This document shows, piece after piece, positions 10,570-49,082 of a stretch of DNA of 55,405 nucleotides (within the stretch, counting starts at the first letter, position 1; the number at the start of each line of letters is the position of its first letter). The stretch is from an uncultured Thermoplasmata archaeon (GTDB lineage: Archaea; Thermoplasmatota; Thermoplasmata; GCA-020350865), in the NCBI GenBank assembly GCA_965371185.1, contig CBDUXN010000002.1:1-55405 (forward strand), read 5' to 3'. The notes under the pieces were generated by a model. The model was not told the origin of the DNA. It saw nothing but the letters and a program-made list of their open reading frames with translations, and ran no database searches. A program made the translations under genes and the position numbers.

Positions 10570-10670
10570 GTAGATAAGGTCAGTATATTAAAAACTATCT
10601 CTGGTTGGTGGTTGTGCGCTGTTCAATGATACTTGCTTTGATGTTTGTATCAACCTTCCCGTTTATCAAT

Positions 10671-10728
10671 CCCACCCATCGTGTTCCTCCACCATCCATT
10701 ACCCACCACCAATGTCCCTTCCACACGC
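10671..10728. repeat. C-rich intergenic tract (G-rich on the sense strand of the downstream minus-strand gene), loose copy
   Basis: cccacccatcgtgttcctccaccatccattacccaccaccaatgtcccttccacacgc lies 100-160 nt upstream of the GT4 start at 10569. Confidence 0.3.
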
Positions 10729-10802
10729 TCATCATCCTCGTGCAATACCATGAAAATCAAAAGTCTTATCTATACCAAACCAATACATGCTCTGTTGGGA
10801 AT

Positions 10803-12059
10803 ATGGGCAAGAAAATCTGCATCCTGGGTCTTGGTTACATAGGACTACCTACAGCCGGCATGCTTGCCACGTACGGGTATGATGTTATAGGCGTGGATGT
10901 AGATGAGAAAATCGTAAAAAAAATGGTCAACGGGGAGGTTCACATAAGGGAAGCAGGACTTGAAACGCTGGTACAGGCTGCATTGAAGTCAAGACGACTT
11001 CAGGTTCGAACAGCGCCTCAAAAGGCGGATGTATTCATAGTATGCGTCCCAACACCCATCGATGATGAGACAAAGAAGCCAGATCTCCGCTTTGTTGAAT
11101 CTGCTGTTGAGAGCGTCCTTCCTCATCTCCAAAAGGGCAACTTGATAATAGTGGAATCTACGGTGCCTCCGTCGGCTAATAAAAACCTCGTTATCCCGAT
11201 TCTGGAAAAAAGTGGATTGGAAGTTGGAAAGGAGCTGTTTGTGGCATACTGCCCAGAGAGGGTTTTACCGGGCAAGATACTCACGGAGCTTGTGAACAAT
11301 GACAGGATAATCGGGGGCGTGGATAAGAAATCAGCTGAGATGGCCAAGGAGCTCTACAGATCCTTTGTGGAGGGTGACATTCACCTGACAGATATCGAAA
11401 CTGCTGAAATGGCGAAGTTGATTGAAAACACTTTCAGAGATGTGAACATAGCCCTAGCCAACGAATATTTGAAGGTATCAGAGCGTGTGGGCGTAGATGT
11501 TTGGAAGGCCATTGAACTGGCGAATAAACATCCGAGGGTCAACATTCATTATCCAGGTCCCGGGGTCGGTGGCCACTGTATTGCAGTTGATCCATGGTTC
11601 ATTGTGAAGGCGGATGAAGAGGACACAATTCTCATCAGAACCGCCAGAAAGACCAACGACGGGATGCCGAACTTCATCGTTAATGTCATGGAAAAGGAAT
11701 TGGAAGGGATTGAGAACCCGACGGTAACGGTATTCGGGGTTGCATATAAAGGGAATGTAGGTGATACACGTCAATCACCAGCCCGACAAATCATTTCCCT
11801 TCTGATGGAAAGGGGATACGAGGTCAGAGCTTATGATCCCTTGGTAGAGGATTTCCATTACGAGCTTTTACCCTTGGAGAAGGCTGTGGACAATTCTGAC
11901 TGTATAGTAGTTCTGGCAGATCATAGAATTTTCAACAATTTGGACCTAGAAGTAATTTTTTCGCTGATGAGGAATAAAAGGGTCATCGATACCAAGAACT
12001 GCCTCTCCCCAAATTGGGAAAAAGCAGGTTTCAGTGTCAGGATTTTAGGAAATGGATAA
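10803..12059 (+). CDS. wecC: UDP-N-acetyl-D-mannosamine (UDP-sugar) 6-dehydrogenase family
   Basis: Start taken at ATG 10803 (MGKKICILGLGYIGLPTAGMLA, the NAD-binding GxGxxG). The catalytic-Cys region GPGVGGHCIAVDPWF is present. Immediately followed by wecB. The track's TTG extension from 10605 runs through a C-rich intergenic tract. Confidence 0.8.
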   Translation: MGKKICILGLGYIGLPTAGMLATYGYDVIGVDVDEKIVKKMVNGEVHIREAGLETLVQAALKSRRLQVRTAPQKADVFIVCVPTPIDDETKKPDLRFVESAVESVLPHLQKGNLIIVESTVPPSANKNLVIPILEKSGLEVGKELFVAYCPERVLPGKILTELVNNDRIIGGVDKKSAEMAKELYRSFVEGDIHLTDIETAEMAKLIENTFRDVNIALANEYLKVSERVGVDVWKAIELANKHPRVNIHYPGPGVGGHCIAVDPWFIVKADEEDTILIRTARKTNDGMPNFIVNVMEKELEGIENPTVTVFGVAYKGNVGDTRQSPARQIISLLMERGYEVRAYDPLVEDFHYELLPLEKAVDNSDCIVVLADHRIFNNLDLEVIFSLMRNKRVIDTKNCLSPNWEKAGFSVRILGNG

Positions 12060-12061
12060 TA

Positions 12062-13153
12062 ATGAGGATTTGCATTGTTGCGGGTACCCGCCCGGAAATA
12101 ATCAAAATGTCACCGATTATCAGGGAATGTAAGGAGAGAGGCATTGATTACCTGATGATTCATACGAACCAGCATTATTCCTACAATATGGACAAGATAT
12201 TCTTTGAGGAGCTGGCCCTCCAAGAACCTGAATACAATTTGGAGATAGGCTCCGGAACCCACGGCGCTCAAACCGGGAAGATGATCATCGAACTGGAAAA
12301 AAGGCTGATGAGGGAAAAACCTGATGTCGTTTTGGTAGAGGGAGATACGAACACGGTTTTGGCAGGAGCCCTCACAGCCTCGAGATGTCGAATAGATGTT
12401 GGGCATGTGGAGGCAGGTCTGAGAAGCTTTGATAGAACCATGCCCGAAGAAATCAACAGAATGTTGACGGATCATCTATCCTCGTACCTGTTCGCTCCCA
12501 CCCCTATCTCAAAGAGCAACTTGATGGGCGAGGGCATCAGAGAGGATTGGGTATATGTCGTAGGAAACACGATCGTGGACGCCACGATACATCACCTGGA
12601 GCTTGCCAGGAGAAAATCGAATATTTTAGAAGATTTGCAGTTGACGGAAAAAGGCTATTTTCTGCTCACGATCCATCGCCAGGAGAATGTTGACGATGAG
12701 GAGAGGCTGAACAAGATAATCACCTCCCTAAGGGAAATCGATAAAAAGTACGATATACCGATCATCTACCCGATACACCCAAGATCAGAAAAGATGATGA
12801 AAAAATTCGGCTTGAAAACGCAATTGGAGGGGATCAACAACATAAAATTGATTGAGCCAGTGGGTTATATGGATTTTCTTGTCCTCGAGAGGAACGCGAA
12901 GCTTGTACTTACGGACTCGGGTGGCGTTCAAGAAGAAGCTTGCATATTGAATGTTCCCTGCGTGACGTTGAGATACAATACCGAGAGACCTGAGACCGTG
13001 GAAGTAGGCAAAAATATGGTTGTTGGGGTCGAAAGCGAAAATGTGTTGAAGGGTGTGGAGGAGATGTTGAAAAGGGATTTGAGCGACAAAAATCCATTTG
13101 GAGACGGAAGAACCGGAAAGAAAATAGTGGATATTATGATTGAATCCGTTTAG
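12062..13153 (+). CDS. wecB: UDP-N-acetylglucosamine 2-epimerase (non-hydrolysing type)
   Basis: MRICIVAGTRPEIIKMSPII.., ..VLVEGDTNTVLAGALTA.., HVEAGLRSFDRTMPEEINR and DSGGVQEEA are classic WecB/MnaA motifs. The ATG lies 3 nt after the wecC stop. Confidence 0.9.
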   Translation: MRICIVAGTRPEIIKMSPIIRECKERGIDYLMIHTNQHYSYNMDKIFFEELALQEPEYNLEIGSGTHGAQTGKMIIELEKRLMREKPDVVLVEGDTNTVLAGALTASRCRIDVGHVEAGLRSFDRTMPEEINRMLTDHLSSYLFAPTPISKSNLMGEGIREDWVYVVGNTIVDATIHHLELARRKSNILEDLQLTEKGYFLLTIHRQENVDDEERLNKIITSLREIDKKYDIPIIYPIHPRSEKMMKKFGLKTQLEGINNIKLIEPVGYMDFLVLERNAKLVLTDSGGVQEEACILNVPCVTLRYNTERPETVEVGKNMVVGVESENVLKGVEEMLKRDLSDKNPFGDGRTGKKIVDIMIESV

Positions 13154-16467: not shown

Positions 16468-17547
16468 TTATCCTCCCCTCTCAACGAGAAAATCCACGAT
16501 TCTTTCAGAAGCCTTTCCATCACCGAACGGATTGATTTCATGGTCAATCTTAGTATCATGCATTCGTCTTACCCCATCGGCGATTACTTTTTGGTCTGCC
16601 CCAACGAGAATATTTGCATTCAAATCCAAAGTCTCTGTCCATTCGGTGTTATCCCGCAGTGTTACGCACGGGACCCTCAGCAAGAAAGCTTCTTTCTGCA
16701 CACCGCCTGAATCCGTTATCATCACCTTTGCATTTGAGAGCAGGAACAGGAACTCAAGGTAGCCTATTGGTTTCATCTCCCGCACCATATCAGAATTCTT
16801 GATATCATCCCATAATCCGAACTCCGTCAACTTCTTTTTTGTGCGTGGATGTACTGGGAACAAGAGCGTTTTATCCAAGGCCAAAAGCGCCCTGATGATG
16901 TTCTCCAACCTCTTCCTGTTGTCCGTGTTCTCAGCCCGGTGAACTGTTACAAGATAGTAATCATCTTCAAATCGATATTTCTCAGAAAAATTGCTTTTTG
17001 CAAGGCTGAGATGATCAAAGCAAGCTTCAACCATGGTGTCCCCAAAATGATGTATTTTATCCTCTGATACGCCCTCTTCTTCTAGATTTTTAACAGCGGT
17101 GGTTGTGGGGCAAAAAAGGGCATCTGAGCAACGGTCGATTAAAATCCTATTGATCTCCTCTGGCATGGTCCTGTCAAAGGATCTCAGTCCCGCTTCCACA
17201 TGGCATGTCTCCACCCCCCGAATTTTTGTGGATGCCAATGCACCTGCTAAACTCGTATTGGTGTCTCCAGGAACGATGACAAAATCGGGCATCTCCTTTG
17301 CGATTACACTCTCAATTTTTATGAGCATATTGCCGATCTGATAACCGTGGCTACCAGAGCCCACATCAAGGAAATGATCTGTTCTCGGCAATTCGAGCTC
17401 GTTCAGAAATATCTGGTTCATCTCCCTATCGTAATGCTGTCCTGTGTGCACTAGCACATGTTGAATACCCCTTCCCAGTATCTCTTTGATCACAGGCGCC
17501 ATCTTCACAAAATTCGGCCTAGTCCCCACTACGGACAGTACTTTCAT
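16468..17547 (-). CDS. wecB: UDP-N-acetylglucosamine 2-epimerase, second diverged copy
   Basis: MKVLSVVGTRPNFVKMAPV.., ..VIVPGDTNTSLAGALAS.., HVEAGLRSFDRTMPEEINR and DSGGVQKEA. Confidence 0.9.
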   Translation of the reverse strand: MKVLSVVGTRPNFVKMAPVIKEILGRGIQHVLVHTGQHYDREMNQIFLNELELPRTDHFLDVGSGSHGYQIGNMLIKIESVIAKEMPDFVIVPGDTNTSLAGALASTKIRGVETCHVEAGLRSFDRTMPEEINRILIDRCSDALFCPTTTAVKNLEEEGVSEDKIHHFGDTMVEACFDHLSLAKSNFSEKYRFEDDYYLVTVHRAENTDNRKRLENIIRALLALDKTLLFPVHPRTKKKLTEFGLWDDIKNSDMVREMKPIGYLEFLFLLSNAKVMITDSGGVQKEAFLLRVPCVTLRDNTEWTETLDLNANILVGADQKVIADGVRRMHDTKIDHEINPFGDGKASERIVDFLVERGG

Positions 17548-19473: not shown

Positions 19474-19692
19474 TCAAATCAAATGAATAAGCCTCTGGCC
19501 CCCGCCAATAGCATCACTTCGAGATTGGATTACATCCACAAAGATCTTGAAGTCCTGGAAGCTGACAATATCATGGTTCGCAAGATCTACGATATCTTCC
19601 TTCCATTTCGTATCATCTATCACCTGGCTCTGGTTGAGGTAACTGTTAGGGTCACTTATATTGCTTACAGTTATAACAGTACCAACGATCAT
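19474..19692 (-). CDS. Hypothetical 72-aa protein (weak call)
   Basis: The ORF neatly fills the 190-nt convergent gap and has ordinary composition. Its only ATG lies 41 nt inside the upstream gene and no motif is recognised. Confidence 0.25.
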   Translation of the reverse strand: MIVGTVITVSNISDPNSYLNQSQVIDDTKWKEDIVDLANHDIVSFQDFKIFVDVIQSRSDAIGGGQRLIHLI

Positions 19693-21349
19693 AGACGTAA
19701 CTTAATGTCCCACCACAACTCATGCAAGTATATTGTTGTTGTGGAGCATATGCAGGCGGCTGCCCTTGTGGCCTCCGCTGTGGCTGTACATATTGCTTAC
19801 AGTTATGACAATATAAACGATCATTAACATATCTCGCTGGCAAACCACAGGTTGGGCATTGAAGAACAGCAATATCGCACGTGTTATTGAATTGATATAT
19901 CGACAAGCCGAGCGATATTACTAGCAAAATTCCAGCAACACCTTGAGCAACCATTAGTGACTTAATACCGGCAATAAACTCATCAGCCGCATCCTCCAAT
20001 TCCGCATCGTTTTGTGTGTTCATCATATCATCGATAGCCACATTTATTCCTGAGCTTAAAAATAGGCTGAGAAATATTATGGCTATTAGGGCTGCTAAGC
20101 CCACAAAAATAGGGGCAAATATTTTTAGCTTGCCACCTCTCCCCTTCAGAATTTCTTTTATGGCATACATAATAGAAAAAATGAGCATTATTACTGCCAA
20201 TGTCGCTAAGATAGACGATAGAACCCAGTTATTAATTGCCCCCTGGAAATAACCAGCTACATCTCTTGCTGCCTCCTGAGAATATGGCTCGTTTTCTACT
20301 ATGTAGGTTGCACTTTCAAGACCTGAAAAGGCCAGTTCTAAAAATGCGAAAGAGGCAATAACTAAAATCAACCCGGTTATAATTATGATCATTCCATATT
20401 GGACATTCTTATCTTCAGCAGGTAAAAGAAGGGCCGATTTTTTAAACCGAAGAAGTCCTATTATACCAATAAACGAACCTGCGATTAATAGGAGTAAGGT
20501 AAGCCTACTGTAAACAAAGAAAAGTAGGCTCCCAATTATAGTAAATATCAACGCTGCTATCGTGGTTTTTCTTCCTTTAATCCGGGGTGGAACACGTGGT
20601 GGATATAATTGAGCAGGAGCTTGAGCGGGAGCAATATATGCTGGCTGGGCTGGGGGTGCAGGCTGCGTTTCCTTCTCCGTAACAAAATCGTCCCAGCTTG
20701 GTTCCTCTGCTTCTTTTTTTTCAGCGACCTTCGCTTTTTCTTCAATTTCTTGCTTTTTACCGCAATTGGTACAAAAGGTAGCTTCAGCAGGTAACTCTGC
20801 CCCGCAAAAGATACAGAATCTTTTTTCACCCTCTTTTGGTGAGCTTTCTTGGGTTTTTAATTCATCGCTGTATTTTTGACAATTATAGCAGTACCATTTC
20901 TGATATTGTTGAATGAAAGACAAAGATTGGCCACATTTTGGGCAGGGGTATTGAACCGGTTGTGCTGGGGCAGGTACCTGAGCCTGAGGCATCCCTGTGG
21001 ACATCGATCTTAATCTACCCCCTAAATCCTCTATGGCCCTCCATCCTTGTCTCCTAGGTATACCTCCGACAACAGCTTTTGGTGCAAAATCCTGTTCAGA
21101 CACACCATAAACCCCGATAAATCCCTCGGTGTGGACGATCATTCCGCCTTGAATTGGTTTGAAGTAGATCTCAAAGTATTTTGGAGCAGTTAGCCCCAGT
21201 CCTCCCGGGACACCAATACGACCCTTCATAAAATCCTGTCTTTCTTCCACAAGTTTTACTTTATTGTCGTTCATCCAACGCAAAATTTCATTTCTTATAT
21301 CTTGATAACTCCTTCCGTATACAGGCATTTCTTGTATTGTTCTACTCAT
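19652..21349 (-). CDS. Multi-zinc-ribbon polytopic membrane protein (N-terminal soluble domain, 2 ribbons, 6 TM helices, 2 ribbons)
   Basis: Start taken at ATG 21349 (MSRTIQEM), which forms an ATGA overlap with the upstream stop. Ribbons lie at 20870-20944, 20762-20815, 19790-19858 and 19658-19726. There are six hydrophobic helices between about residues 270 and 500 of the track ORF. Confidence 0.8.
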   Translation of the reverse strand: MSRTIQEMPVYGRSYQDIRNEILRWMNDNKVKLVEERQDFMKGRIGVPGGLGLTAPKYFEIYFKPIQGGMIVHTEGFIGVYGVSEQDFAPKAVVGGIPRRQGWRAIEDLGGRLRSMSTGMPQAQVPAPAQPVQYPCPKCGQSLSFIQQYQKWYCYNCQKYSDELKTQESSPKEGEKRFCIFCGAELPAEATFCTNCGKKQEIEEKAKVAEKKEAEEPSWDDFVTEKETQPAPPAQPAYIAPAQAPAQLYPPRVPPRIKGRKTTIAALIFTIIGSLLFFVYSRLTLLLLIAGSFIGIIGLLRFKKSALLLPAEDKNVQYGMIIIITGLILVIASFAFLELAFSGLESATYIVENEPYSQEAARDVAGYFQGAINNWVLSSILATLAVIMLIFSIMYAIKEILKGRGGKLKIFAPIFVGLAALIAIIFLSLFLSSGINVAIDDMMNTQNDAELEDAADEFIAGIKSLMVAQGVAGILLVISLGLSIYQFNNTCDIAVLQCPTCGLPARYVNDRLYCHNCKQYVQPQRRPQGQPPAYAPQQQYTCMSCGGTLSYVYDRWYCYNCKQYK

Positions 21350-22461
21350 TCTAACACCTTCATTTTCCCACATTCACCACAGAAAACAGCTTCTCCCGGA
21401 AGCTCAGCACCGCAGAATGCACAGTATTTCTTCTGGCCTGCAACAGAAGGAGGCTCCTGCACAGGTTTTGAGGGCGGTGGTCCTGGCGGAGGCGCAACTG
21501 TTGGTTGCTGTAGTTGAGCAGGTGAAGGTTGATATTCCCGTTCTTCCAGCGGTTGCTGAGGCGATTCGGTATTCTTCTTTGTGATGAGCAAGAATATTGC
21601 CAATACCACGATTACTAGAATTGCGATAATCACTCCAAGTAACAGATAGAGATCAATTCCTTCTTCGGGCTTTTCCAGATAATCACTCCTATCCAATGGG
21701 TCTGTACCATTTATGTACTCTTCATAATTTATATAGCCGTCTCCGTCTGGATCCTCCAAAGCATCGCTAGGGTTCAACGGATCAAACCCATGAATGTTCT
21801 CCCATTCATCAGGCATGCCATCGTTATCATCGTCCAGGTCCTCAGAATCTAGGATACCATCTCCATCCGTATCTATAGGTGAGGATGAGTTGACACTAAA
21901 GAAACCAAAACCCTGGAGATCAAGCCAAACCTCTCCACTTAATTGAGGGATTAAATACAATGTTTCTAGTGATGCACCGGGTTCGATTTCTGCTTCTATT
22001 GTGACATCTTCCATTCCCGTAGCCCAACCAGCATAATAATCTCCAAACCAGGAGTCTGGAATGTAAAATGCCAATACCTGCAGGGATTCTGTATCATTTT
22101 CTACGAATGCCTCTTGAAGACCTGGCACCGTAAGGGTTTGGGCAACAGAGTTAGAGTTCTGAACTTCAACAATGATTGCAATGGGAGAGTCTAGTTCCTC
22201 GTCGAGTGTAGTGCCACCAGTATATTCGATAGACCCGCCGGCCTCTATTTCCATGCTCATATCCACTTGACTTCCTGGAGGATCTGGCTCTAGTGTAGAA
22301 TAAAAGTCATTCAATGATTCATACTCCACGAATCGTAGTTCAACATTCCATCCATTGACCCCACCGCCCACTGCAAGACTGGGCAGACATCCAAATACAC
22401 CGATAACCAACAAGCACACAATAATAATGGATAGTTTTTTATGACCAATCATTTTTATCAT
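21346..22461 (-). CDS. Type-I membrane protein: signal peptide, ectodomain with thrombospondin-type-3-like Ca-binding repeats, one TM helix, Pro-rich linker, C-terminal zinc ribbon
   Basis: MIKMIGHKKLSIIIVCLLVIGVFGC.. is the signal. DTDGDGILDSEDLDDDNDGMPDEWE and DPDGDGYINYEEYINGTDPL are the repeats. The TM helix is LYLLLGVIIAILVIVVLAIFLLI and the ribbon YCAFCGAELPGEAVFCGECGK lies at 21370-21423. Confidence 0.8.
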   Translation of the reverse strand: MIKMIGHKKLSIIIVCLLVIGVFGCLPSLAVGGGVNGWNVELRFVEYESLNDFYSTLEPDPPGSQVDMSMEIEAGGSIEYTGGTTLDEELDSPIAIIVEVQNSNSVAQTLTVPGLQEAFVENDTESLQVLAFYIPDSWFGDYYAGWATGMEDVTIEAEIEPGASLETLYLIPQLSGEVWLDLQGFGFFSVNSSSPIDTDGDGILDSEDLDDDNDGMPDEWENIHGFDPLNPSDALEDPDGDGYINYEEYINGTDPLDRSDYLEKPEEGIDLYLLLGVIIAILVIVVLAIFLLITKKNTESPQQPLEEREYQPSPAQLQQPTVAPPPGPPPSKPVQEPPSVAGQKKYCAFCGAELPGEAVFCGECGKMKVLE

Positions 22462-22589
22462 CTCTTTCTATATCCATTATCTGTTCCATCATTCATTTCC
22501 CCACTAATCTGCTTTTTATCACAATTCCCACAGAATATGGCATGTGCTGGGACCTCTGCACCGCAAGAATCACAATGTCGCCCTTCCAT
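22458..22589 (-). CDS. Stand-alone 43-aa zinc-ribbon protein (not in supplied ORF track)
   Basis: Hand translation gives MEGRHCDSCGAEVPAHAIFCGNCDKKQISGEMNDGTDNGYRKR*. Its TGA (22460-22458) overlaps the ATG (22461-22459) of the next gene. The CxxCGAE.P..A.FC..C pattern is the same as in the two downstream genes. Confidence 0.6.
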   Translation of the reverse strand: MEGRHCDSCGAEVPAHAIFCGNCDKKQISGEMNDGTDNGYRKR

Positions 22590-22641
22590 TTCCCTCGCCT
22601 TTTCCTACATCTTCTATCAAGTATTTTTCTTTTACGATATT

Positions 22642-22773
22642 TCACCTTTCTTTTCCAAAAATCTGCTTTTTCTCACACCTGATACAAAAATCCGCGTTTA
22701 CAGGGAGATCAGCACGGTGCTCTGGAGATGTGGAGAGATATAATCACAATTTCGCTCTCACGGTTCTTATCAT
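22642..22773 (-). pseudogene. Decayed tandem copy of the small zinc-ribbon gene
   Basis: Same 132-nt length. Translation is MIRTVRAKL*LYLSTSPEHRADLPVNADFCIRCEKKQIFGKER*, with an in-frame TGA at 22746-22744. The first Cys pair is replaced (S..H), while the second half aligns with AEVPAHAIFCGNCDKKQISGE. Confidence 0.35.
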
Positions 22774-22892
22774 CAGATATATAATAGACATCAATATGTC
22801 AAACCTGAGAGGATTTATGATATATTCAACTGGTGCGATACTCTATTAAATGAATACCTCAGAAGGGTTATTAAAAGAGGCTCCAGACAGCA

Positions 22893-24191
22893 TCACTTCC
22901 CCACACCTTTATACACAAACCCATTCCCCGTGCAAACATCTTTATCGAATACATTCCTTCCGTCAACTATGATGGGGGTTCTCATCAACTCCTTTATGTG
23001 CTCGAGGCTCAGATTCTTATAAGATGTGTGTGCCGTCACCAACACTATGCAGTTTGAGCCTTTTAGAGCCTTATCGAGGTTATGGAACACACTGAGACCT
23101 TCACATTCCTCCACGAAAGGGTCATGGGGCCTGACCTCCGCGCATCTACCCTTCAACTCCTGGATGATCGGGAAGGCAGGTGAATTTCTGATGTCGTCGG
23201 AATTCTCAAGATAGGCAAGACCCAGGATAGAAATTACCGCCTCCTCTATTTTTACTCCTCCTTCTTGAAGAGCCGCTACAGTCAATTCCACCATGTGATG
23301 CGGCATGGAATCGTTAATATCCCGTGCCAGTGCAATTATTTTAGGCGAAAGCACGTTTTTAACCCCCCATGCTAACAGCCAAGAATCCTTGGGCAAGCAG
23401 TGCCCACCGACTCCTGCACCTGGTTTATGCATGTCCCTGAAAGGGCATTTGTTCACCAATCCTCTGACCTCATAGGCGTTCACATCCAGCTTTTCGCATA
23501 TCAAAGCGATCTCGTTTGCAAAGGCGATTTGTACATCTCTGTAAGCATTTTCTGCGGTTTTCACTACCTCAGCGGTGAGCGAATCGGTTGGATAAAGCTC
23601 CCCCTCGACCACATGCTGGTAAAGCTCCAGGGCTATTTTTGTACTCTCCTCGTTTATGCCTCCCACAACCCTGTCGTACTCCCTGATGTTCTGAAGCAAT
23701 CTACCAGGCATCACCCTTTCCGGACAGTTGGCCAGATAAAAATCCTTACCTGCAACCATACCCGATTCGGTCTCAAGAATGGGCTTCGCCACCTTCTCCA
23801 TGGTTGTCGGGGCTATTGTGGATTCTATCACCACGAGACTGCCTTTTGTAAGGTTTTTTCCAACATCCCTTAGAGCAGATTCAAGGGACGAATATTTCGG
23901 CTCCATTTTTTGTGTGTCGAAGGGGGTCTGGACAGCTATCAATATGGTGTGGGCATCCCTGCAGGCCGAAAAATCCTGGGTTGCGGAAAGCCTTCCTTCA
24001 GCCACCATCTTCTTCAAGAGCTCTTCAAGTCCAGGTTCCTCACCCTTTATGGGGCACTCCCCATTGTTGATCATATCAACCTTTGGCCGGGAGCGGTTGA
24101 TGCCCACGACCTGAAACCCTTTTGTGGCGAACGCCACCGCCACCGGGATCCCCACATATCCCATGCCTACAACCACGATTTTTTTATTCAT
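22893..24191 (-). CDS. wecC: UDP-sugar 6-dehydrogenase family (UDP-ManNAc dehydrogenase-like), second copy
   Basis: Start at ATG 24191 (MNKKIVVVGMGYVGIPVAVAFA). The catalytic region is GAGVGGHCLPKDSWLL. The track start at 24227 is a TTG. Confidence 0.8.
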   Translation of the reverse strand: MNKKIVVVGMGYVGIPVAVAFATKGFQVVGINRSRPKVDMINNGECPIKGEEPGLEELLKKMVAEGRLSATQDFSACRDAHTILIAVQTPFDTQKMEPKYSSLESALRDVGKNLTKGSLVVIESTIAPTTMEKVAKPILETESGMVAGKDFYLANCPERVMPGRLLQNIREYDRVVGGINEESTKIALELYQHVVEGELYPTDSLTAEVVKTAENAYRDVQIAFANEIALICEKLDVNAYEVRGLVNKCPFRDMHKPGAGVGGHCLPKDSWLLAWGVKNVLSPKIIALARDINDSMPHHMVELTVAALQEGGVKIEEAVISILGLAYLENSDDIRNSPAFPIIQELKGRCAEVRPHDPFVEECEGLSVFHNLDKALKGSNCIVLVTAHTSYKNLSLEHIKELMRTPIIVDGRNVFDKDVCTGNGFVYKGVGK

Positions 24192-24204
24192 GTTTCCAGC
24201 CCCG

Positions 24205-25167
24205 TTAAATGATTTGCATAACGGCAAAGATGATGATTATGAGGCAAAGTACCCCTTCGATTGCCCAGAGTATCCAGACCAATTGCCGTTCTTTTACCCT
24301 TCTTTTCTTCATGATCAGATGGGTCAACGATTCTATTTTCCCTTTGTAGGTCAAGTAACCATCCTTGTCGGGAATGCCGTAATTCTCGCCTCGGAAATGT
24401 CCTCTAAGTTTAAGGGAAAACTCGATGATCATCGGTATGAACAGTATCGCCCCGATGGTCTTCAAATCGCCGATAATGGCGGCACATGCTATGGTTGAGC
24501 CCATGAACAGGGTGAGGGTATCTCCGGGAAATATTCTTGCTGGGTAGCGATTGAACCAAAGAAAGGCCAAAAGCGCACCCAGAAGCGGGAACAACAGTAG
24601 AAGAGAGTCCATAGCACCGAACAAGAAGGAAATTATTATCAATGTTATGCTGATGATGATCCCCAAACCCGCACCCAGGCCATTGAAGCCTTCGAGCATA
24701 TTACCCGCATTGGCAGCACAGGTCACACCAAATGGAGCGATCAGCACCATGAGCAAACCAAAATCCACTTCAACGAATATGAACGACATTGTGGTCTTGT
24801 CCACCACATACACACCGATCGGTATGGCGAACAGGAAGGGGATAACAGCCTTGATCCTCTGCCTCAAACCGAAGAGGTCGTCCATGATCCCCGCTAAAGC
24901 AGCACCTACCACCGCCAAGACCGGGGCTGCCAGAAGGGGCAGATCATCTTTGTTAAAGAGTTTGTTGATCACTAAAAGGGTTGAGACACCGGAAATGAAA
25001 CCTATGACCACCGCCAATCCACCCATCTCTGGGATCTTGGGTTTGTTGAATTTGTTTTGATCCACACCTACAAGGCCTCGTTCCGTCAATTTTTCTATGA
25101 GCCAGAGTACGGTAATGAATGTGGTCAAAAATGATACTATTAGAGCTATTATCAGTATTTCGACCAT
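24205..25167 (-). CDS. MraY/WecA-family polyprenyl(dolichyl)-phosphate N-acetylhexosamine-1-phosphate transferase (AglH-like)
   Basis: About 10 TM helices. Motifs include ..GIMDDLFGL.. and ..NAGNMLEGFNGLG.. (the N-x-x-N-x-x-D/E-G-x-D/N-G-L type). ATG at 25167 (MVEILII); the track start at 25191 is a GTG. Confidence 0.75.
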   Translation of the reverse strand: MVEILIIALIVSFLTTFITVLWLIEKLTERGLVGVDQNKFNKPKIPEMGGLAVVIGFISGVSTLLVINKLFNKDDLPLLAAPVLAVVGAALAGIMDDLFGLRQRIKAVIPFLFAIPIGVYVVDKTTMSFIFVEVDFGLLMVLIAPFGVTCAANAGNMLEGFNGLGAGLGIIISITLIIISFLFGAMDSLLLLFPLLGALLAFLWFNRYPARIFPGDTLTLFMGSTIACAAIIGDLKTIGAILFIPMIIEFSLKLRGHFRGENYGIPDKDGYLTYKGKIESLTHLIMKKRRVKERQLVWILWAIEGVLCLIIIIFAVMQII

Positions 25168-25347: not shown

Positions 25348-27615
25348 CTACGGATCCAGTTTACTCGTCCTCACCCTCCTCCTGACGATGTAAACGATAA
25401 GACATGCCGTCAACAGAATCAGCAGCAGCAGGAAAAATGGATTGCCCTCCTCGGCTTTTAGAGCCTCCTTTTCCACCTCATGGTATTCCACTGCATCCAG
25501 GTCATAGTAACCAACGGTCATAGACAATTCAGAGCCTTCGTATCCTGAATATGGGGAGCCGAATCTGAGGGGTGCGATCATGGAATTGTCATCCCCAAAA
25601 TCGATGAACTGCGTTTCACCCAAATCCCCTCCCAGGATGAGTTGGACCGACATGATATATTCGATCCTCAATTCAACATAGCTGTTCTCTCTAATTGGAT
25701 TTTGGGCTTTGAAACCCTGCCCCACTATGTCGAAGGCCCATAGTGCATTTGTATCTGCGGCGTCCACATCCAGCTCCTCACGCCTGGAGCCAGAAAATAC
25801 AGGGCTGAAACCCCCGGTGAAATCAACTGACCCGTCGTTGTCGTAGTCGATGGTGTACGAGAGATCTCCAGCAGAGAGCTCAGAGGTATCTAAAGGAAGG
25901 TAACTCAACTCGATTATCACCTTCTCAACCTTCTCAGGAACGAAAATGATCTTCGTTTGATTCACAGTGGTTAGAGACCTTCCAAACTGGTCGTTGTACC
26001 TGCTGTACTCTCCCTCCCATTGGGCGCTTAAAACATTCGTGGGCTTGGATGTATCCACCTCGACCATCATGTGTTCATAGCTTCTCAGAGCATCTTCAAC
26101 GGATATGTCCTTCTCAGGGTACATCTTCCTGAGCCTTTCCAACGTTAACGCCACGCCGACAGCCTTTTCAGCGTTCACTATTCCGTAACCCTGGCAGTAA
26201 TCCATTGGCCTTCCGTCCATGCCTGTTATATTATCCTGGGCTGGCACGCCGTGCTCCTCGGTTGGTTCAAGGTATGTGGCAGTGGCTTCAAGAATCCACT
26301 CGGCCTCATGTATCCTCGTCTCAGGGTTCTCCCACCAGCTTTCGTCATCACCGCTGTAATCCTCGTGCCTATCGCTTATCCCTATGGAAGGAGCGGCTTG
26401 AAACAGCAATGCAACCAGACCTGCAACATGCGGTGTGGACATGGATGTGCCGCTAATGGCCAAGTAGTACGGGTTAGGGTTACCACCAAGCTTCGAGCCT
26501 CCGCTTATCGCTGTTCTTCTCGCGTGTGCGCTCCATATACTCCTCCCTGGTGCACCGATATCTGGATATGTGTGGTTCCAGCCGAGTTTTCCCTTCGAGC
26601 TGAAATCTGTAACAGCGCTGCCATCCCTCTCATAGGCTGCCACCATGATAGCAACCGGCGTATTGCCTTCAAAGCTTGTGGAGATCTCATCCCCCTCCAT
26701 GTTGTCCCTGCCTTCATTGCCTGCAGACCAAGTGGTCACGACATTGTTTTCATATGCCAATTTCATTATCACCTGGGACAAAGGCGCTTCGGGATCGTAC
26801 TCATCCTCTATCGTATGCCAGCTGTTCGTGGCGACTCTGATGTTATGGGGATTGGCATTAGGGCGGGAGTGATCATAGACCCACTCCAGGCTTACCAGGT
26901 AGTCAGCCACCGTTGGATCAACAATCGTCAGGCCGATCAAGTTCGCTCCAGGCGCCACACCTCTTCTAGCTCCAGCAGATGCATCGCCATTGCCGGCGAC
27001 AGTGCCAGCGACATGGGTACCGTGGCCGTAGTCAAAATCCGTGTTCTCCATCTCTATCCATGCATACCCCTCCTCCCTGTTCAGGTAGAGGTTCATGATC
27101 GTCTTTTCACCGTAATCGAGGTCCGGATGGCCAGCATCTATACCTGTATCCACAACCACTATGGTAACTCCCTCGCCGTCGATATTAGAAAATTGGGAAG
27201 AACCCCTGATCTCCCTGTTCCAAGCCCTTGTTGCGTTTATCACAGACAGTGACATCTCCATGTCGATCTCCACATCCCTGTTCAGGTCTATTCTCTTAAC
27301 CATGGAATAACTGCTCAACATTTTGACGGAATCCACATTGCCTCTAGCATAAACTGCGGGTATGATATGATAAGTGTAGATAATCTCAAAGTTAAGGGCA
27401 TTTAGCATACAGGTATCCCTCTCTTCCACATCCTCTTTGAATTGGACGATGATCTCGATGCTGTCAGAAGGTGACATATTTTTCAATTCCCTCAGCGTGC
27501 TCTGAGGGAAGACGTCCTCCCGATATTCCTCTCCAGCGATTATGGGGGCATAATGTGGAATAAGGAGCAAAAAGGAAAACATAACCAACGCAACTCCCTT
27601 GTTTTTCAACTGCAT
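25348..27615 (-). CDS. Secreted subtilisin-like serine protease (S8) with C-terminal TM anchor
   Basis: Catalytic triad contexts are VVDTGIDAGHPDL, HGTHVAGTVAGNG and GTSMSTPHVAGLVALL. The N-terminus is hydrophobic, and the C-terminus is FFLLLLILLTACLIVYIV followed by RRRVR. ATG at 27615 (MQLKNKG). Confidence 0.9.
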   Translation of the reverse strand: MQLKNKGVALVMFSFLLLIPHYAPIIAGEEYREDVFPQSTLRELKNMSPSDSIEIIVQFKEDVEERDTCMLNALNFEIIYTYHIIPAVYARGNVDSVKMLSSYSMVKRIDLNRDVEIDMEMSLSVINATRAWNREIRGSSQFSNIDGEGVTIVVVDTGIDAGHPDLDYGEKTIMNLYLNREEGYAWIEMENTDFDYGHGTHVAGTVAGNGDASAGARRGVAPGANLIGLTIVDPTVADYLVSLEWVYDHSRPNANPHNIRVATNSWHTIEDEYDPEAPLSQVIMKLAYENNVVTTWSAGNEGRDNMEGDEISTSFEGNTPVAIMVAAYERDGSAVTDFSSKGKLGWNHTYPDIGAPGRSIWSAHARRTAISGGSKLGGNPNPYYLAISGTSMSTPHVAGLVALLFQAAPSIGISDRHEDYSGDDESWWENPETRIHEAEWILEATATYLEPTEEHGVPAQDNITGMDGRPMDYCQGYGIVNAEKAVGVALTLERLRKMYPEKDISVEDALRSYEHMMVEVDTSKPTNVLSAQWEGEYSRYNDQFGRSLTTVNQTKIIFVPEKVEKVIIELSYLPLDTSELSAGDLSYTIDYDNDGSVDFTGGFSPVFSGSRREELDVDAADTNALWAFDIVGQGFKAQNPIRENSYVELRIEYIMSVQLILGGDLGETQFIDFGDDNSMIAPLRFGSPYSGYEGSELSMTVGYYDLDAVEYHEVEKEALKAEEGNPFFLLLLILLTACLIVYIVRRRVRTSKLDP

Positions 27616-27698
27616 GACCAAAGCCCCATTTTCAAGAATTATAATGTAGAATATATCATATATATATTTCTGAAGTTTTAATAATTTATAAATAAATC

Positions 27699-29239: not shown

Positions 29240-30259
29240 ATGCAACTTTCAGATTTCGATTATTCTCTACCGCAGCGTCTCATAGCGCAAAGCCCTGCAG
29301 AGCCTAGAGATACCTCGAAACTCATGGTGCTTCGCAATGACGAGATCGAGCACAAAACATTTCGGGATTTGGTAGGGTATCTTGGCAAGGGAGATGTGCT
29401 CGTTCTGAACGATTCCAAGGTTTTGCCTGCCAGGCTCTTTGGAAGGAAGGAAACAGGAGGAAAGGTGGAGCTACTTTTAATAAACAAGGAGGATGGAAAT
29501 AGGTGGGAATGCCTAATAAAAGGTAAGAGCGTCAGATCGGGTACAAAGCTATTTTTTGCTGAGAACAGGTTGGAAGGCATCGTGGAGGATAGGATCCAGG
29601 GGGGCAGGTTCAGGGTTGAGTTTCTTACTGAGAATGACTTGGATGAGATCATCCAAGAGATCGGTGAGATGCCCATACCGCCTTATATCAAAGAGGTACC
29701 TGAGGATCCGCAGAGGTACCAGACCGTCTATGCAAAAGAGAACGGTTCTATAGCCGCCCCAACAGCGGGGCTGCATTTCACCGAGCAAACGCTCGGCGAG
29801 ATCCAAACGAAAGGCGTTGAGATCGTCAACATAACGCTGCATGTGAGCATAGGCACATTCTTGCCCGTGAAAAGCCAGGATATTACCCTTCATACCATGG
29901 GACCCGAGCATTTCGAAATCGGGGCGAATGCGGCAAGGAAGATCAACACCGCAAAGGCCAATGGAAACAAAATAATCGCCGTGGGAACCACCACGGTCAA
30001 GGCCCTGGAGAGCGCCTGCGATGATGCGGGGAAAATAATGGGAATGGAAGGTCAAAGCGATCTTTTCATCCATCCTGGATATGAATTCAGATCCGGTTTG
30101 GATGCGCTATTAACCAATTTCCATCTGCCTAAATCAACGCTCCTCATGCTTGTAACGGCATTTGCTGGTGGGGACAGGATCATGAAGGCCTACAGAACCG
30201 CAGTGGATAACTCGTACAGGTTCTACAGCTTTGGCGATGCAATGCTGATTCTGAGGTAA
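29240..30259 (+). CDS. queA: S-adenosylmethionine:tRNA ribosyltransferase-isomerase
   Basis: MQLSDFDYSLPQRLIAQSPAEPRDTSKLMVL.., ..VLVLNDSKVLPARL.., IAAPTAGLHFT and GTTTVKALES are QueA hallmarks; 339 aa. Confidence 0.9.
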   Translation: MQLSDFDYSLPQRLIAQSPAEPRDTSKLMVLRNDEIEHKTFRDLVGYLGKGDVLVLNDSKVLPARLFGRKETGGKVELLLINKEDGNRWECLIKGKSVRSGTKLFFAENRLEGIVEDRIQGGRFRVEFLTENDLDEIIQEIGEMPIPPYIKEVPEDPQRYQTVYAKENGSIAAPTAGLHFTEQTLGEIQTKGVEIVNITLHVSIGTFLPVKSQDITLHTMGPEHFEIGANAARKINTAKANGNKIIAVGTTTVKALESACDDAGKIMGMEGQSDLFIHPGYEFRSGLDALLTNFHLPKSTLLMLVTAFAGGDRIMKAYRTAVDNSYRFYSFGDAMLILR

Positions 30260-30264
30260 TAGCG

Positions 30265-31371
30265 ATGTTCGAAGTGATCAGCAAGGATGGAAAATCAGAG
30301 GCAAGGACAGGAAGCCTGAAGCTTCCCACCTGTGCAATTGAAACCCCCGTCTTCCTGCCAGTGGCCACAAAAGCAGATGTTAAACTCACCAGCCCGGACG
30401 AGCTCAGAAATCTCGGCGCGCAGGCATTGATCGCAAACGCATTCGTGCTTTATCTGAGACCTGGGATCGAGGTCATCGAGGCAGCAGGCGGGATACACGA
30501 GTTCATGGGATGGGACGGTGCCGTGTTCACGGACAGCGGAGGTTTCCAAATGCTCAACAAGGATTTTCTCCTGTCCGTTTCGGATTCCCACGTTACTTTC
30601 AAGTCACCCTTCGACGGCACGAAGCACCGTTTTACCCCAGAAAAATGCGCGGAGATACAGATGAAGCTCGGCTCGGACGTGGCCATGATATTGGATGACT
30701 GCCCAGCCTACGGCAGCGGTTATGAGCATATTTCCACCTCCACCAAGAGGACGATACATTGGGCGGAGAGGTTCAAAAATGCCCATAGAAGTGATGAGGA
30801 TCAGAGGGTATTTGGTATCGTTCAAGGCGGGGTATACAGGGATTTAAGAGAGAAGTGCAGCTCCTCACTTGTGGATATGGATTTCGACGGCTATGCAATA
30901 GGCGGCTTATGCATCGGCGAGCCCAAGGAAACCATGCATCAGGTCATCGAGTGGACTGCACCGCTTCTGCCTCATGACAAACCAAGATATCTCATGGGTG
31001 TCGGCTCCCCGGAAGATATGTTGGAGGCCATTGCTTCGGGTGTGGACATCTTCGACAGCGTATTTCCAACGAGAAACGCGAGGCACAACACAGTTTACAC
31101 CAAAAGAGGGAAGGTGAACATCGGCAAGGAGAAGTTCAATGGCGACTTTAGATCGATAGATGAGGGATGCGAATGCTATACTTGCAGGAAGTTCTCGTTG
31201 GCCTACGTCAATCATCTGCTTCGGGAGCATGAATATCTCGGTATGAGGCTGGCAACAATCCACAATTTATTCTTCTTGGAGAACCTGATGACGGAGACAA
31301 GAGAAGCGATTGGGGAGGGGGAATTCAATAGGTTCAAAAGTGAATTTTTTGGGAATTATGTGGGTAAATAA
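30265..31371 (+). CDS. tgt: Queuine/preQ1 tRNA-ribosyltransferase, bacterial type (no PUA / archaeosine C-terminal domains)
   Basis: DSGGFQ, FGIVQGGVYRDLR, FDGYAIGGLCIGEPK, DKPRYLMGVGSPED, FPTRNAR, CECYTCRKFSLAYVNHL and TIHNL align along their length with my memory of E. coli Tgt. 368 aa; the ATG lies 5 nt after the queA stop. Confidence 0.9.
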   Translation: MFEVISKDGKSEARTGSLKLPTCAIETPVFLPVATKADVKLTSPDELRNLGAQALIANAFVLYLRPGIEVIEAAGGIHEFMGWDGAVFTDSGGFQMLNKDFLLSVSDSHVTFKSPFDGTKHRFTPEKCAEIQMKLGSDVAMILDDCPAYGSGYEHISTSTKRTIHWAERFKNAHRSDEDQRVFGIVQGGVYRDLREKCSSSLVDMDFDGYAIGGLCIGEPKETMHQVIEWTAPLLPHDKPRYLMGVGSPEDMLEAIASGVDIFDSVFPTRNARHNTVYTKRGKVNIGKEKFNGDFRSIDEGCECYTCRKFSLAYVNHLLREHEYLGMRLATIHNLFFLENLMTETREAIGEGEFNRFKSEFFGNYVGK

Positions 31372-31553
31372 GTAGCCTTTCAAAGCATGGAAAAACTTGA
31401 GAACTCAGGAGTAACCTTGTCGCAACCCTTTTGGGATTAAACCCGCCCCATTACTTCATAGGATATCTTCACCGAAAAGTATAAAATATCATAATATTAT
31501 GGAAAACCTCCTATCTTAATTCGTACATTGAGATGGAACTTGGAGGAGTTGCA

Positions 31554-34500
31554 ATGAAGATGGTGAAGAGAACGGATGTTATTGGCAATTGCAAATATAG
31601 ATTCAGAGGCGTATTTTTAGCAATAATCCTACTCGCTTCCGTAGGGGTAATAAACCACATTAGCGTGAATGTAGTTGGAGCAGATATCTATGAGCCTGAT
31701 GATGATCCCGGAAATGCTACCGCCATCACAACCGATGGTACCTTATATAGCCACGATTTCACCCCTGGTAATGACTATGAGGACTGGCACAACTTCACTG
31801 CAACAAGTGGTACTTACTATATCATAGAAACCCATAATCTCGGTGCCGCTGACACTGAGCTCTGGCTATACGATACTGATGGAGTTTCCTTAATCTACCA
31901 TAATGACGATAATGGAACGGAACCATCAGCATCAAGAATCGAATGGATAGCACCAAGAAGCGATAATTTCTATGTCCTGATCACCGAATATAATTGGGGT
32001 ACTGGTCCATCATACACATATGACATCAACATAACAGAATCAATACCACCGCCGGGAGATATCTATGAGCCAGACAATGATTTCGGAAACGCGAGTGTCA
32101 TACCTACAGATGGCACGAATCAAAGTCACACTTTCCACATCAATGCTGATGAAGACTGGGTAATGTTCACCATCACACCAGGAACGATATACACCATAGA
32201 AACACTGAATCTCTCATCTTCCTGTGATACATATATTGCATTATTCGAAAGCGACGGTACCACCGTTATTCTTGAAGATGACGATGGAGGAGGAGGTTAT
32301 GCCTCACGTATTATATGGGATCCCACAGGATATCCTGCAGGCGATTATTATGTCGGAGTTTGGGGGATCATGGGAGGTTCTGGACCTAATTGTTCTTACG
32401 ACATAAGAATATATGAAAGTGGGGCTTCACCTGATGCCTATGAGCCCGACGACAACCCAGGAGAGGCGACCCTCATCCCCACGGATGGGACGAACCAAAC
32501 CCACAATTTCCATGTCTCAAATGACGAGGACTGGGTAATGTTTTCCATCACGCCAGGAACACTCTATACCATGGAAACACTGAACCTCTCACCTTCTTGT
32601 GACACATATATGGAATTATACGAAAGCGACGGCACCACACTTATCGACTGGGACGATGATTCAGGAGGAGATTTCGCGTCCCGGATTTATTGGAATTCCA
32701 CAGGGTATCCGCCGGGCAATTATTATATCAGAGTTATTGAGGTTTGGGGAGGTGCTGGGGTCGATTACTATTATGATATCAGAATATTGGAAAAGGGACC
32801 AGCTGCCCAGTTCGATCCTCCGCATTCGGATCACGGTCTGGATACGGATAGCGACGGCCCATACAACTTCTTGGTTGTCAACGCCACAGTGAATGTAAGT
32901 GTTGCAGGCAATTACATAGTGTATGGTGAGTTAGAGGATATTTTCTATTATTGGATAGATGATGATATCAATGTCACCTCTCTTACCGTTGGTAATCAAA
33001 CCGTGGAACTGCGTTTCGATGGTGTCAGCATAAACAGTAATGGCGAGGATGGACCCTACATCGTAATGCTATACCTGTATAACGAATCCTGGGGTCTGAT
33101 CCAAATTGATATGCATACGACAGATGCTTACACATATGATCAGTTCCAGCCTCCACCCGATGCTCTCATCGTTACGGGCAATGACATTGCACCAGTGGAT
33201 GTTATCCAGGGTCAAACCGATGTTGAAATGGAACAGTTGACACTCAGTGCCTCTAAAGGTTCCGTGAACGTGACCTCATTTACGGTGGTTCTATCGGGAA
33301 CAGGTAATGATGCTGACGTGTTAGATGTGAGGTTGTTTGATGATGCTGATGATACCGGCGATTTAACAGGGGGAGATGTGCAGCTTGGAACAACCCAGAC
33401 ATTCTCAGGGGGAACTCTCACGTTCTCGGGTTTGTGGTTCACAGTATATTTTGGAACGGATGAGAATCTCCTCATCGTGTACAACATATCTATCACGGCC
33501 ACAGTTGGCCAAACCGTTGGTTGTACAATTGTGGACAATACTTCTATCACTGTGGAAGCGTCGGATACTGTCAATGCATTTTTAACCATCCAATCAACGA
33601 ACTCCACCATCCAAGACCTACCTGATGCACTCACGGTCCTCGGTACAGACAAAGCGCCAACCGATGTTATCCAAGGTCAAACCGATGTCGAGATGGAGCT
33701 GTTGACGTTAACAGCAAGTGCCGATAGTGTTACCTTATCCGCAATCAAAGTGGACCTATCAGGCAACGGTACGGATGCTGATGTTGCCGGGGTGAAATTG
33801 TATGACGATATCGATGAGAGCGGTAATCTCACGGTTGGTGACACTCAACTTGGATCAACCCAGACGTTTTCAGGCGGCACCCTCACATTCTCTGGACTAT
33901 CCTTTACCATCGATTTCGGTTCCCCTGAGTATCTGCTTATCATGTTCGACATCTCCCCTTTAGCCACTGTAAACGATGCTGTTGGCTGTGAAATCGTGGA
34001 TGAAACCTATCTTACCGTAGCACCGGATACCGTCAATACTTTCACAGCGATAAATTCAACGAATTCAACAATTCTCGACTCGGGATCGGATGTGCTAACA
34101 GTCACAGGTACGAATGAGGCGCCAACCAATGTCTTGCAGGGCGAAACAGAAGTTGTTATGGAGCGGTTGACGCTTACTGCAATCGGTGGCTCGATATCGG
34201 TAACCGACATCAAAGTCGATCTGTCCGGAACCGGTTCGGATTCTGACATAGCCGTGGCAAGATTATTTTATGATACTGACAGCAGTGGTACCTATACAGC
34301 GGGAATGGATATCCAGTTGGGATCGGACCAAACATTCGTGGGCGGTACCCTCACCTTCACAGGTATTGTGCTGATATTGGGCTCTGGGATGACGGATTAC
34401 CTGTTCATCCTTTATGATATTAATGCCACTGCAACCGTAGGCGCCACAGTTGGCTGCACACTCGTGGATAATACCTACATCACAGTGGAACCGCCTAATG

Positions 34501-48403: not shown

Positions 48404-48471
48404 ATTCAATATAATTATTCAATTGGAAATATAAAAAAGTTGAGGGTTCCTAATTGTCTCTAATTGGACAA

Positions 48472-49029: not shown

Positions 49030-49082
49030 TCTCCCAAATTCACGTTTAAGTTAATAGGAAAACTTATTAAACCTCAATACAA

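Follow-up and report, generated by a model that had tools for sequence, protein, structure and literature searches.

Three overlapping genes for zinc-ribbon-tipped surface and membrane proteins in an uncultured Thermoplasmata archaeon

We analyzed a stretch of 55,405 nucleotides from an uncultured Thermoplasmata archaeon (contig CBDUXN010000002.1 of GenBank assembly GCA_965371185.1; the whole stretch is called the window below) that contains three consecutive genes for zinc-ribbon proteins on the minus strand. The open reading frames (ORFs) lie at 22589-22458 (P1), 22461-21346 (P2) and 21349-19652 (P3). P1 is a free zinc ribbon of 43 residues, P2 is a type-I membrane protein of 371 residues, and P3 is a polytopic membrane protein of 565 residues. 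Direct reading of the sequence gives an ATGA overlap at both junctions, 22461-22458 between P1 and P2 and 21349-21346 between P2 and P3, as had been reported in a preliminary description made from the DNA letters without database searches. Two successive overlaps of this kind suggest that the translation of the three genes is coupled.

The P1 ATG is preceded by a Shine-Dalgarno-like GAGGGA. Between P1 and the upstream UDP-sugar dehydrogenase gene lies an AT-rich spacer of 303 bp with TATA-like runs (22590-22892, minus strand), which is likely to be the promoter region of the operon. P3 has a second possible start in the same frame, an ATG further 5' at 21373, which the public gene call uses to give a form of 573 residues; the ATG at 21349 has a Shine-Dalgarno-like GAAGGTG six bases 5' of it. 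On the downstream side of the operon a GyrI-like gene is convergent with P3. The gap down to this gene is occupied by an ORF for 72 residues (19474-19692, minus strand) that begins within the 3' end of P3 in another frame and overlaps it by 41 nucleotides; it is a candidate fourth gene of the operon.

The ribbons are concentrated in this operon. A regular expression for zinc ribbons, applied to the six-frame translation of the window, found seven sites, all in plausible genes, versus none in 200 shuffled sequences. Six of the seven fall in P1-P3. Three of the four ribbon-bearing genes thus stand in a row among about 47 genes, which has a chance probability of p = 0.011. The ribbons are of two types, designated A and B.

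P1 (22458-22589, minus strand) is a type-B ribbon with little else, and its cysteine ligands are encoded at 22521-22574. It matches the Pfam family Zn_Ribbon_1 (PF13240) with 23.0 bits and E = 6.7e-5, against a gathering cutoff of 25. P1 is not in the public protein collection, so it has never been called as a gene.

P2 (21346-22461, minus strand) starts with a hydrophobic, signal-like segment. It is followed by an ectodomain whose first part, residues ~33-195 (~165 residues; 21877-22365), is a highly acidic orphan, and whose second part, residues ~196-262 (21676-21876), consists of Ca-binding repeats of the thrombospondin type 3 (TSP3). The repeats belong to the Pfam family TSP3_bac (PF18884), with two matching stretches and 45.8 bits against a cutoff of 25. 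The ectodomain has 54 Asp and Glu versus 3 Lys and Arg residues, and three N-x-S/T sequons. Hydropathy places one transmembrane (TM) helix at residues 271-293 (21583-21651), with TKK following on the cytoplasmic side. A cytoplasmic Pro/Gln-rich linker (residues 294-344; 21430-21582) leads to a C-terminal type-B zinc ribbon, CAFCGAELPGEAVFCGEC (21370-21423), which was found by the regular expression and matches Zn_Ribbon_1 with 22.9 bits and E about 7e-5 against the cutoff of 25. The order of these segments is the one given in the preliminary description, and Pfam and hydropathy agree with it.

A search of 5.8 billion proteins with the P2 ectodomain gave only matches confined to the TSP3 repeats and none to the remaining part. 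No homologue of the ectodomain was present among about 900 ORFs of the loci that we fetched. One of the TSP3 matches (P0009) is organized like P2, with an ectodomain and TSP3 repeats before the TM helix and a ribbon after it; next to it lies a short-chain dehydrogenase gene.

The plan of P2 is also close to that of other surface proteins in the window. The large exported proteins encoded there are all strongly acidic (pI 4.1-4.6), whereas the cytosolic enzymes have ordinary pI values. These exported proteins are a subtilase, proteins of 1822 and 910 residues, and a PQQ-like propeller, at 25348-27621, 31533-37001, 37194-39926 and 42902-44836. Each of them has a signal peptide and ends in a single TM helix and a Pro/Glu-rich cytoplasmic tail. 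Because the plan is common to the surface proteins of the window, P2 can be described as this house style with an added ribbon.

P3 (19652-21349, minus strand) is the most complex of the three products. Its N-terminal domain (N-domain, residues 1-120; 20990-21349) belongs to a family for which Pfam has no model and is predicted to have a beta-alpha-beta4-alpha helix-grip fold similar to that of KA1 domains. After it come a type-A ribbon, CPKCGQSLSFIQQYQKWYCYNC (20879-20944; regular expression and type-A profile), and a type-B ribbon, CIFCGAELPAEATFCTNC (20762-20815; Pfam and regular expression). Residues 136-197 together match the two-ribbon Pfam family DZR (PF12773) with 28.0 bits against a cutoff of 27.3, and the type-B ribbon itself (residues 178-199) matches Zn_Ribbon_1 with 27.1 bits against 25. 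Glu/Lys-rich and Pro/Ala/Gln-rich linkers (residues 200-258; 20576-20752) connect the ribbons to a six-helix membrane domain (residues 261-488; 19886-20569). The C-terminal part carries two further type-A ribbons, CPTCGLPARYVNDRLYCHNC (19799-19858) and CMSCGGTLSYVYDRWYCYNC (19667-19726), both seen by the regular expression and in the AlphaFold2 (AF2) model. Thus the domain order of P3 given in the preliminary description agrees with Pfam, hydropathy and AF2.

The six TM helices of P3 were found both by hydropathy and in the AF2 model. In this model, made for residues 250-565, the mean predicted local-distance difference score (pLDDT) is 74 and six long helices are formed. Each of the C-terminal ribbons forms a beta hairpin (pLDDT 61-74), whereas the segment that joins them is disordered (pLDDT below 50). 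The loops between the helices are alternately rich in Lys/Arg and in Asp/Glu, which fits the positive-inside rule with both termini in the cytoplasm. All ribbons are therefore cytoplasmic, as had been proposed. A Foldseek search with the model of the membrane domain gave only generic helical bundles (designed proteins, ClyA, G-protein-coupled receptors) with TM-scores below 0.35.

The preliminary description had pointed to a motif CxxCGAE(L/V)P..A.FC..CGK shared by all three products. The motif is indeed in all three, but it is not a signature of the operon: it equals the consensus of the Zn_Ribbon_1 and DZR families. In particular, the type-B motif coincides position by position with the consensus of 69 ribbons of the same spacing taken from 39 unrelated proteins. 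We also considered a recent duplication of the B ribbons. The three are only 63-67% identical at the nucleotide level, so the copies are not recent duplicates. Sequence searches of the PDB gave only weak ribbon matches, to Sulfolobus ArnA (5a8i, E = 0.011, with the B ribbon) and to eL40. The ArnA ribbon is one that we take to mediate protein contacts, which would make it a further precedent for docking.

The type-A module is 25 residues long and follows the pattern C-P-x-C-G-x-x-L-x-[YFW]-[IV]-x-Q-Y-x-R-[WY]-Y-C-[YD]-x-C-x-x-Y. We counted 248 copies of it, spread over 88 of the best 149 matches, with one to nine per protein. Its hosts include an MMPL/RND transporter, a family with a SAP domain and two TM helices, a DUF4337 protein, and others. 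Within the window, a protein of 172 residues that is unrelated to P1-P3 (40316-40834, plus strand) starts with an unrecognized domain of ~100 residues, continues with a Pro-rich linker and ends in a type-A ribbon, CPNCGGKASYIKQYDRFYCYTC (40754-40819). This protein has no Pfam match and no close relative in our searches. Its ribbon means that the type-A module is not specific to the operon. An extreme case is a protein of 258 residues (P0061) that consists almost entirely of five tandem type-A ribbons with near-identical Pro/Ala/Glu linkers; copies of the module can evidently be strung together in a row.

In a comparison of the type-A profile with the PDB, the best full-length ribbon match was the ribosomal protein eS31/S27a, with a weak E of about 0.02. 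Several type-A host proteins score 25-32 bits with the corresponding Pfam family (PF01599, cutoff 22.3); P3 itself has no PF01599 match. The type-A ribbon resembles eS31 in its C-x2-C-x14-C-x2-C spacing and in its Y-[DE]-R-x-Y-C core. It differs in an invariant terminal Tyr, in a conserved aromatic core, and in being found in tandem on membrane proteins rather than in the ribosome. The type-B ribbon follows a family consensus, and the type-A ribbon sits on unrelated archaeal membrane proteins. Both ribbon types are accessory modules of a generic and mobile kind on archaeal membrane proteins.

The N-domain of P3 has at least 60 homologues that are 27-63% identical to it over its full length of ~118 residues, with E down to 1e-50. 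Conserved positions are W25, H73-x-E-G, PRRxGW and L109/L113, and P3 has the features of the family. When 38 members were compared with Pfam, no consistent family and no KA1 or SRPBCC match was found. The loci were collected in two sets, of 23 and 46, and statistics were computed on 45 non-redundant, unbiased loci. In species-representative genomes, 21 of the 23 loci belong to Bathyarchaeia or to metagenome-assembled genomes (MAGs) of Bathyarchaeota. The best match, at 63% identity, is from a MAG labeled 'Methanobacteriota archaeon'. By sequence comparison, then, the N-domain family is a new element that has no Pfam model and is found mostly in Bathyarchaeia.

The AF2 model of the N-domain has a pLDDT of 88.6, a predicted TM-score (pTM) of 0.82 and the beta-alpha-beta4-alpha topology. 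Foldseek places it in the helix-grip/TBP-like group, with the KA1 domains of the SAD, Chk1 and MARK1 kinases as the best matches, followed by the BamC N-domain, DUF4468 and SRPBCC. Target-normalized TM-scores against KA1 structures are 0.71 (4yom), 0.74 (5wi2) and 0.64 (3ose), with root-mean-square deviations of 2.8-3.8. KA1 domains bind acidic phospholipids at membranes. The N-domain, for its part, lies on the cytoplasmic side throughout, in most cases near TM helices. The match to KA1 has its limits, as the Foldseek E reaches no better than about 1e-3 to 1e-2 and the sequences are 4-16% identical.

The commonest architecture with this domain is an ArsR-type helix-turn-helix domain (HTH; DUF7347), two TM helices and then the N-domain, which means that the N-domain is cytoplasmic and near the membrane. 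These uncharacterized proteins of Bathyarchaeia are the nearest relatives of the P3 N-domain, with 42-56% identity, and differ from P3 in having an N-terminal winged helix and no ribbons. Their genes encode ~279 residues (L009-L021 and other loci) and are often followed on the same strand by a gene for ~96-99 residues (L011, L012, L016, L018), which may be a conserved partner of the regulator.

Another candidate for the identity of the N-domain came from methanogens. Their 'Meth_adaptin' ESCRT neighborhoods contain an adaptin-appendage-like 'TBP domain' (PMC11188069). This candidate was set aside: no adaptin appendage is among the top 50 fold matches of the N-domain, and the annotation of the window includes neither Vps4 nor ESCRT-III.

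Is the trio conserved elsewhere? Word-indexed searches with the whole of P3 returned P3 alone, since low-complexity and TM words crowded the list of candidates. We therefore used domain-wise queries and a full HMMER scan. This exhaustive scan of 1.84 billion representatives found no full-length homologue of P3; each match is limited to the N-domain, to ribbons or to the membrane domain. For the membrane domain, P0063 and P0100 are the only related clusters, and neither of their contigs has a P2-like gene. A metagenome scan with the alignment of the membrane domain gave no match. For the contig as a whole, no relatives at 90% identity or more are present in the protein collection searched. With an orphan ectodomain in P2 and no P2-like neighbor beside the membrane relatives of P3, synteny of the homologues was not observed.

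The exact trio of the preliminary description was thus not found again, but a looser theme was: genes for the N-domain recur beside genes for ribbon-bearing membrane proteins. The N-domain and a ribbon are on the same polypeptide in 5 of the 45 non-redundant loci. A gene encoding a ribbon and a TM segment lies within three genes of the N-domain in 7 of 21 loci that are not of the HTH type, versus 1 of 24 loci of the HTH type; Fisher's test gives p = 0.017, which becomes 0.035 when the window is left out. The background is 7 of 342 genes. These counts rely on crude ORF calling and on ribbons defined by the regular expression.

Two cases are close to the window in their arrangement. In one Bathyarchaeia locus (L008), three tightly packed genes encode a protein with four TM helices, the N-domain and a ribbon, a protein with two TM helices and a ribbon, and a protein with a PA14 ectodomain, a TM helix and a ribbon followed by more TM helices. 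In the second case (L029/L030), a gene for an N-domain, a Pro/Gln segment and a TM segment is accompanied by two SHOCT-Pro/Gln-TM genes and by a gene of the P2 plan, in which the ectodomain has a signal peptide before it and a TM helix and a Pro/Gln tail after it, with a type-A ribbon as the last element; after this gene comes a LamG/FG-GAP giant. The ectodomains of the window, of L008 and of L029/L030 all differ. The counts given above thus hint, with modest statistical weight, at a joint function of the N-domain and surface proteins that bear ribbons.

A further arrangement is present at L025, and also at L026 and L034. In L025, a frame at 1988-2707 (plus strand), 3' of the gene for a protein with the N-domain, four TM helices and a ribbon (P0058), encodes a B ribbon, a Pro/Gln linker, a TM helix and an ectodomain. 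It is broken by an in-frame TAA at 2204-2206, so that it is either a split gene or a pseudogene.

The preliminary description did not recognize P1-P3 as a named system, and comparisons with Pfam, NCBIfam, PADLOC, PDB sequences and Foldseek did not match them to one either. In particular, there was no match to the PADLOC models of anti-phage defense and no meaningful match of P1-P3 in NCBIfam. The closest class is that of membrane proteins with Zn_Ribbon_1 or DZR ribbons, which are widespread and have no established function. The B ribbons of P1-P3 fit the models of this class, with P3 over both cutoffs and P1 and P2 under theirs by 2 bits, and the layout of a ribbon at a cytoplasmic terminus joined to a TM helix by a low-complexity linker is shared with it. 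Three differences should be mentioned. P2 is a type-I protein and has its ribbon at the C-terminus; translational coupling links three such genes here; and P3 unites a B ribbon, three A ribbons, a six-helix domain and the N-domain in a combination that has no full-length match. The locus is thus not a conserved system but a variant of the common and functionally obscure zinc-ribbon-tailed membrane proteins of archaea. The observations in the preliminary description are confirmed, and its interpretation is supported in part.

The bacterial surface proteins MtsC and MtsD of Myxococcus are comparable to P2 in their TSP3 repeats; P2 has two to three Asp-rich repeats directly outside the membrane. 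NCBIfam matches of P2 to MtsD and MtsC are weak and far under the cutoffs (19 vs 800 bits). The rest of the P2 ectodomain is different, being an orphan, and P2 is anchored by a TM helix with a cytoplasmic ribbon, not by MYXO-CTERM.

A functional precedent is provided by CdpC of Haloferax volcanii (HVO_0399, DUF7093), which anchors FtsZ1 at the membrane. In CdpC a long disordered linker is flanked by zinc ribbons, of which the C-terminal one binds FtsZ1 in a zinc-dependent manner (bioRxiv 10.64898/2026.07.16.738847). According to the same work, proteins with several ribbons are widespread among archaea, and their function is unknown. P2 and P3 are similar to CdpC in their attachment to the membrane, in their Pro/Gln linkers and, for P3, in ribbons joined by a disordered linker. 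The difference is that CdpC binds the membrane through an amphipathic helix, whereas P2 and P3 have TM helices. No DUF7093 match at E of 1 or less was found in P1-P3 or in ten type-A ribbon proteins, and neither ftsZ nor another division gene is annotated in the window.

On these grounds we tentatively favor the view that the locus is a lineage-specific envelope module in which the ribbons serve as docking knobs on flexible cytoplasmic tethers; we regard it as possible rather than probable. In this view P2, which is acidic and anchored through its single TM helix, is a Ca2+-binding and probably glycosylated protein of the cell surface. P3 is the six-helix membrane protein with a cytoplasmic KA1/helix-grip-like domain, and P1 is the free ribbon. 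The tail of P2 and both ends of P3 would reach into the cytoplasm on flexible Pro/Gln-rich linkers tipped with zinc ribbons. By the precedent of CdpC, we infer that the ribbons are most likely protein-docking knobs, and the partner and the physiological role can be proposed only in the same conditional way. The ribbons may hold P2 and P3 together, possibly via the N-domain, or they may attach both proteins to a shared cytoplasmic partner. Coupling through the ATGA overlaps would keep the three products in a fixed proportion.

Several points weigh against this view. The trio is a singleton, so comparative support for an interaction between P2 and P3 is missing. The binding function is putative for every one of the ribbons. 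The predicted fold of the N-domain is matched weakly, with a Foldseek E of about 1e-3, and it has no KA1 sequence signature. The neighborhood statistic, based as it is on 45 loci with crude ORFs and ribbons found by a regular expression, is modestly significant and remains suggestive. Finally, ribbons this common may serve each host protein separately.

The last point leads to an alternative that we consider rather unlikely: the genes are co-transcribed but functionally independent, and each ribbon serves its own polypeptide only. A ribbon could fix the end of a protein in the cytoplasm, self-associate, or give zinc-dependent stability, and the adjacency of the three genes would reflect the mere commonness of ribbons in the lineage. 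This fits the family consensus in the B motif and the presence of the A ribbon on many unrelated proteins, including that of the distant gene in the window. It also agrees with the lack of conservation of the trio and with the plan that P2 shares with the other surface proteins, from which the ribbon alone sets it apart. It accounts less well for the two consecutive ATGA overlaps, which suggest coupled translation, for the adjacency of three of the four ribbon-bearing genes, and for the recurrence of N-domain genes beside ribbon-bearing membrane proteins in other lineages.

The preliminary description had proposed a Ca-binding sensor or adhesin coupled to a polytopic partner. As a transmembrane sensor, P2 would detect Ca2+ or a surface ligand with its TSP3 ectodomain and signal to P3 via the ribbon. 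Besides the Ca-binding nature of the repeats, some relatives speak for this: a Thermoplasmatales protein with TSP3 repeats and a TM segment (P0010) carries cytoplasmic HTH domains, and the N-domain stands most often after an ArsR-type HTH domain and two TM helices, so both kinds of module occur in membrane-tethered regulators elsewhere. However, Pfam and NCBIfam reveal no output or transmitter domain in P1-P3 (HisKA/HATPase, HTH, GGDEF, kinase or cyclase), and a single TM helix followed by a Pro/Gln linker of ~50 residues is poorly suited to conformational signaling. Moreover, TSP3 repeats are usually structural elements of surface proteins, and a conserved pair of partners is missing. We consequently hold the sensor model to be very improbable.

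A last alternative concerns P1, which might be the detached N-terminus of P2 (by frameshift, assembly error or recent split) and not an independent gene. The ancestral protein would then have had the canonical Zn_Ribbon_1 layout of an N-terminal ribbon, a short basic linker, a TM helix and an ectodomain, with a second TM helix and ribbon at its C-terminus. The end of P1 (..GYRKR) and the start of P2 (MIKMIGHKK and a hydrophobic helix) do resemble a junction of ribbon, basic linker and signal anchor, the layout with an N-terminal ribbon exists in neighbors of N-domain genes (L003, L004, L025), and the public pipeline made no gene call for P1. Nevertheless we find the split highly unlikely: a TAG lies three codons 5' of the ATG in the P2 frame, so a fusion needs an indel inside one specific stretch of 9 nucleotides, ATGA overlaps are frequent in the window (e.g., 52228-52231), and small free zinc-finger proteins are common in archaea (references 30 and 34 of bioRxiv 10.64898/2026.07.16.738847).

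The operon lies among genes of glycan metabolism. The flanks encode UDP-GlcNAc 2-epimerases, UDP-sugar dehydrogenases, glycosyltransferases, deacetylases and GNATs, which confirms the earlier placement of the operon in a glycan island. The UDP-GlcNAc 2-epimerase and the UDP-ManNAc/UDP-glucose-type dehydrogenase are each present in two copies (10605-13153 and 16468-17547 / 22893-24227), and because of these doubled genes the island looks internally duplicated. Two polysaccharide deacetylases and several GNATs are also part of it.

The window has further features outside the operon. A queA gene (Queuosine_synth, E = 1e-127) lies beside a gene for a bacterial-type TGT of 368 residues (E = 2e-143) at 29240-31371 on the plus strand. 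Genes of queuosine synthesis are unusual in archaea, which suggests horizontal transfer. The pair raised the question of a bacterial origin of the contig, and this was ruled out: the window also encodes RadA (49965-50909) and PurP (51074-52231), so the contig is archaeal. At 47789-49679 (plus strand) there are three tandem paralogous membrane proteins of 204, 191 and 198 residues that are 39-40% identical and have no Pfam match. This region is the lowest-GC patch of the window, 35-36% versus about 45% elsewhere. Rfam and tRNA scans of the window gave no match.

Archaea have very many membrane proteins tipped with zinc ribbons, and the function of nearly all of them is unknown; CdpC, which anchors the division ring, is the first characterized case. 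The locus described here combines a surface protein, a polytopic protein and a total of six ribbons, of both types, in one coupled unit, which makes it a compact test case for docking. The analysis also defines two modules for which Pfam lacks a dedicated model, the family of the KA1-like N-domain and the 25-residue eS31-like type-A ribbon. Should the ribbons be nothing more than generic appendages, the locus would be an ordinary one. A broader proposal, which we regard as quite improbable, is that the N-domain, cytoplasmic ribbons with disordered Pro/Gln tethers and single-pass surface proteins with variable ectodomains form an undescribed archaeal module. The ectodomains of such a module would be adhesin-like: TSP3 repeats here, PA14 in L008, and an unknown domain beside the LamG/FG-GAP giant in L029. 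If the proposal is true, the ribbons would dock onto the KA1-like domain or onto a CdpC-like cytoskeletal partner, and would thus tie surface proteins to a hub at the inner side of the membrane.

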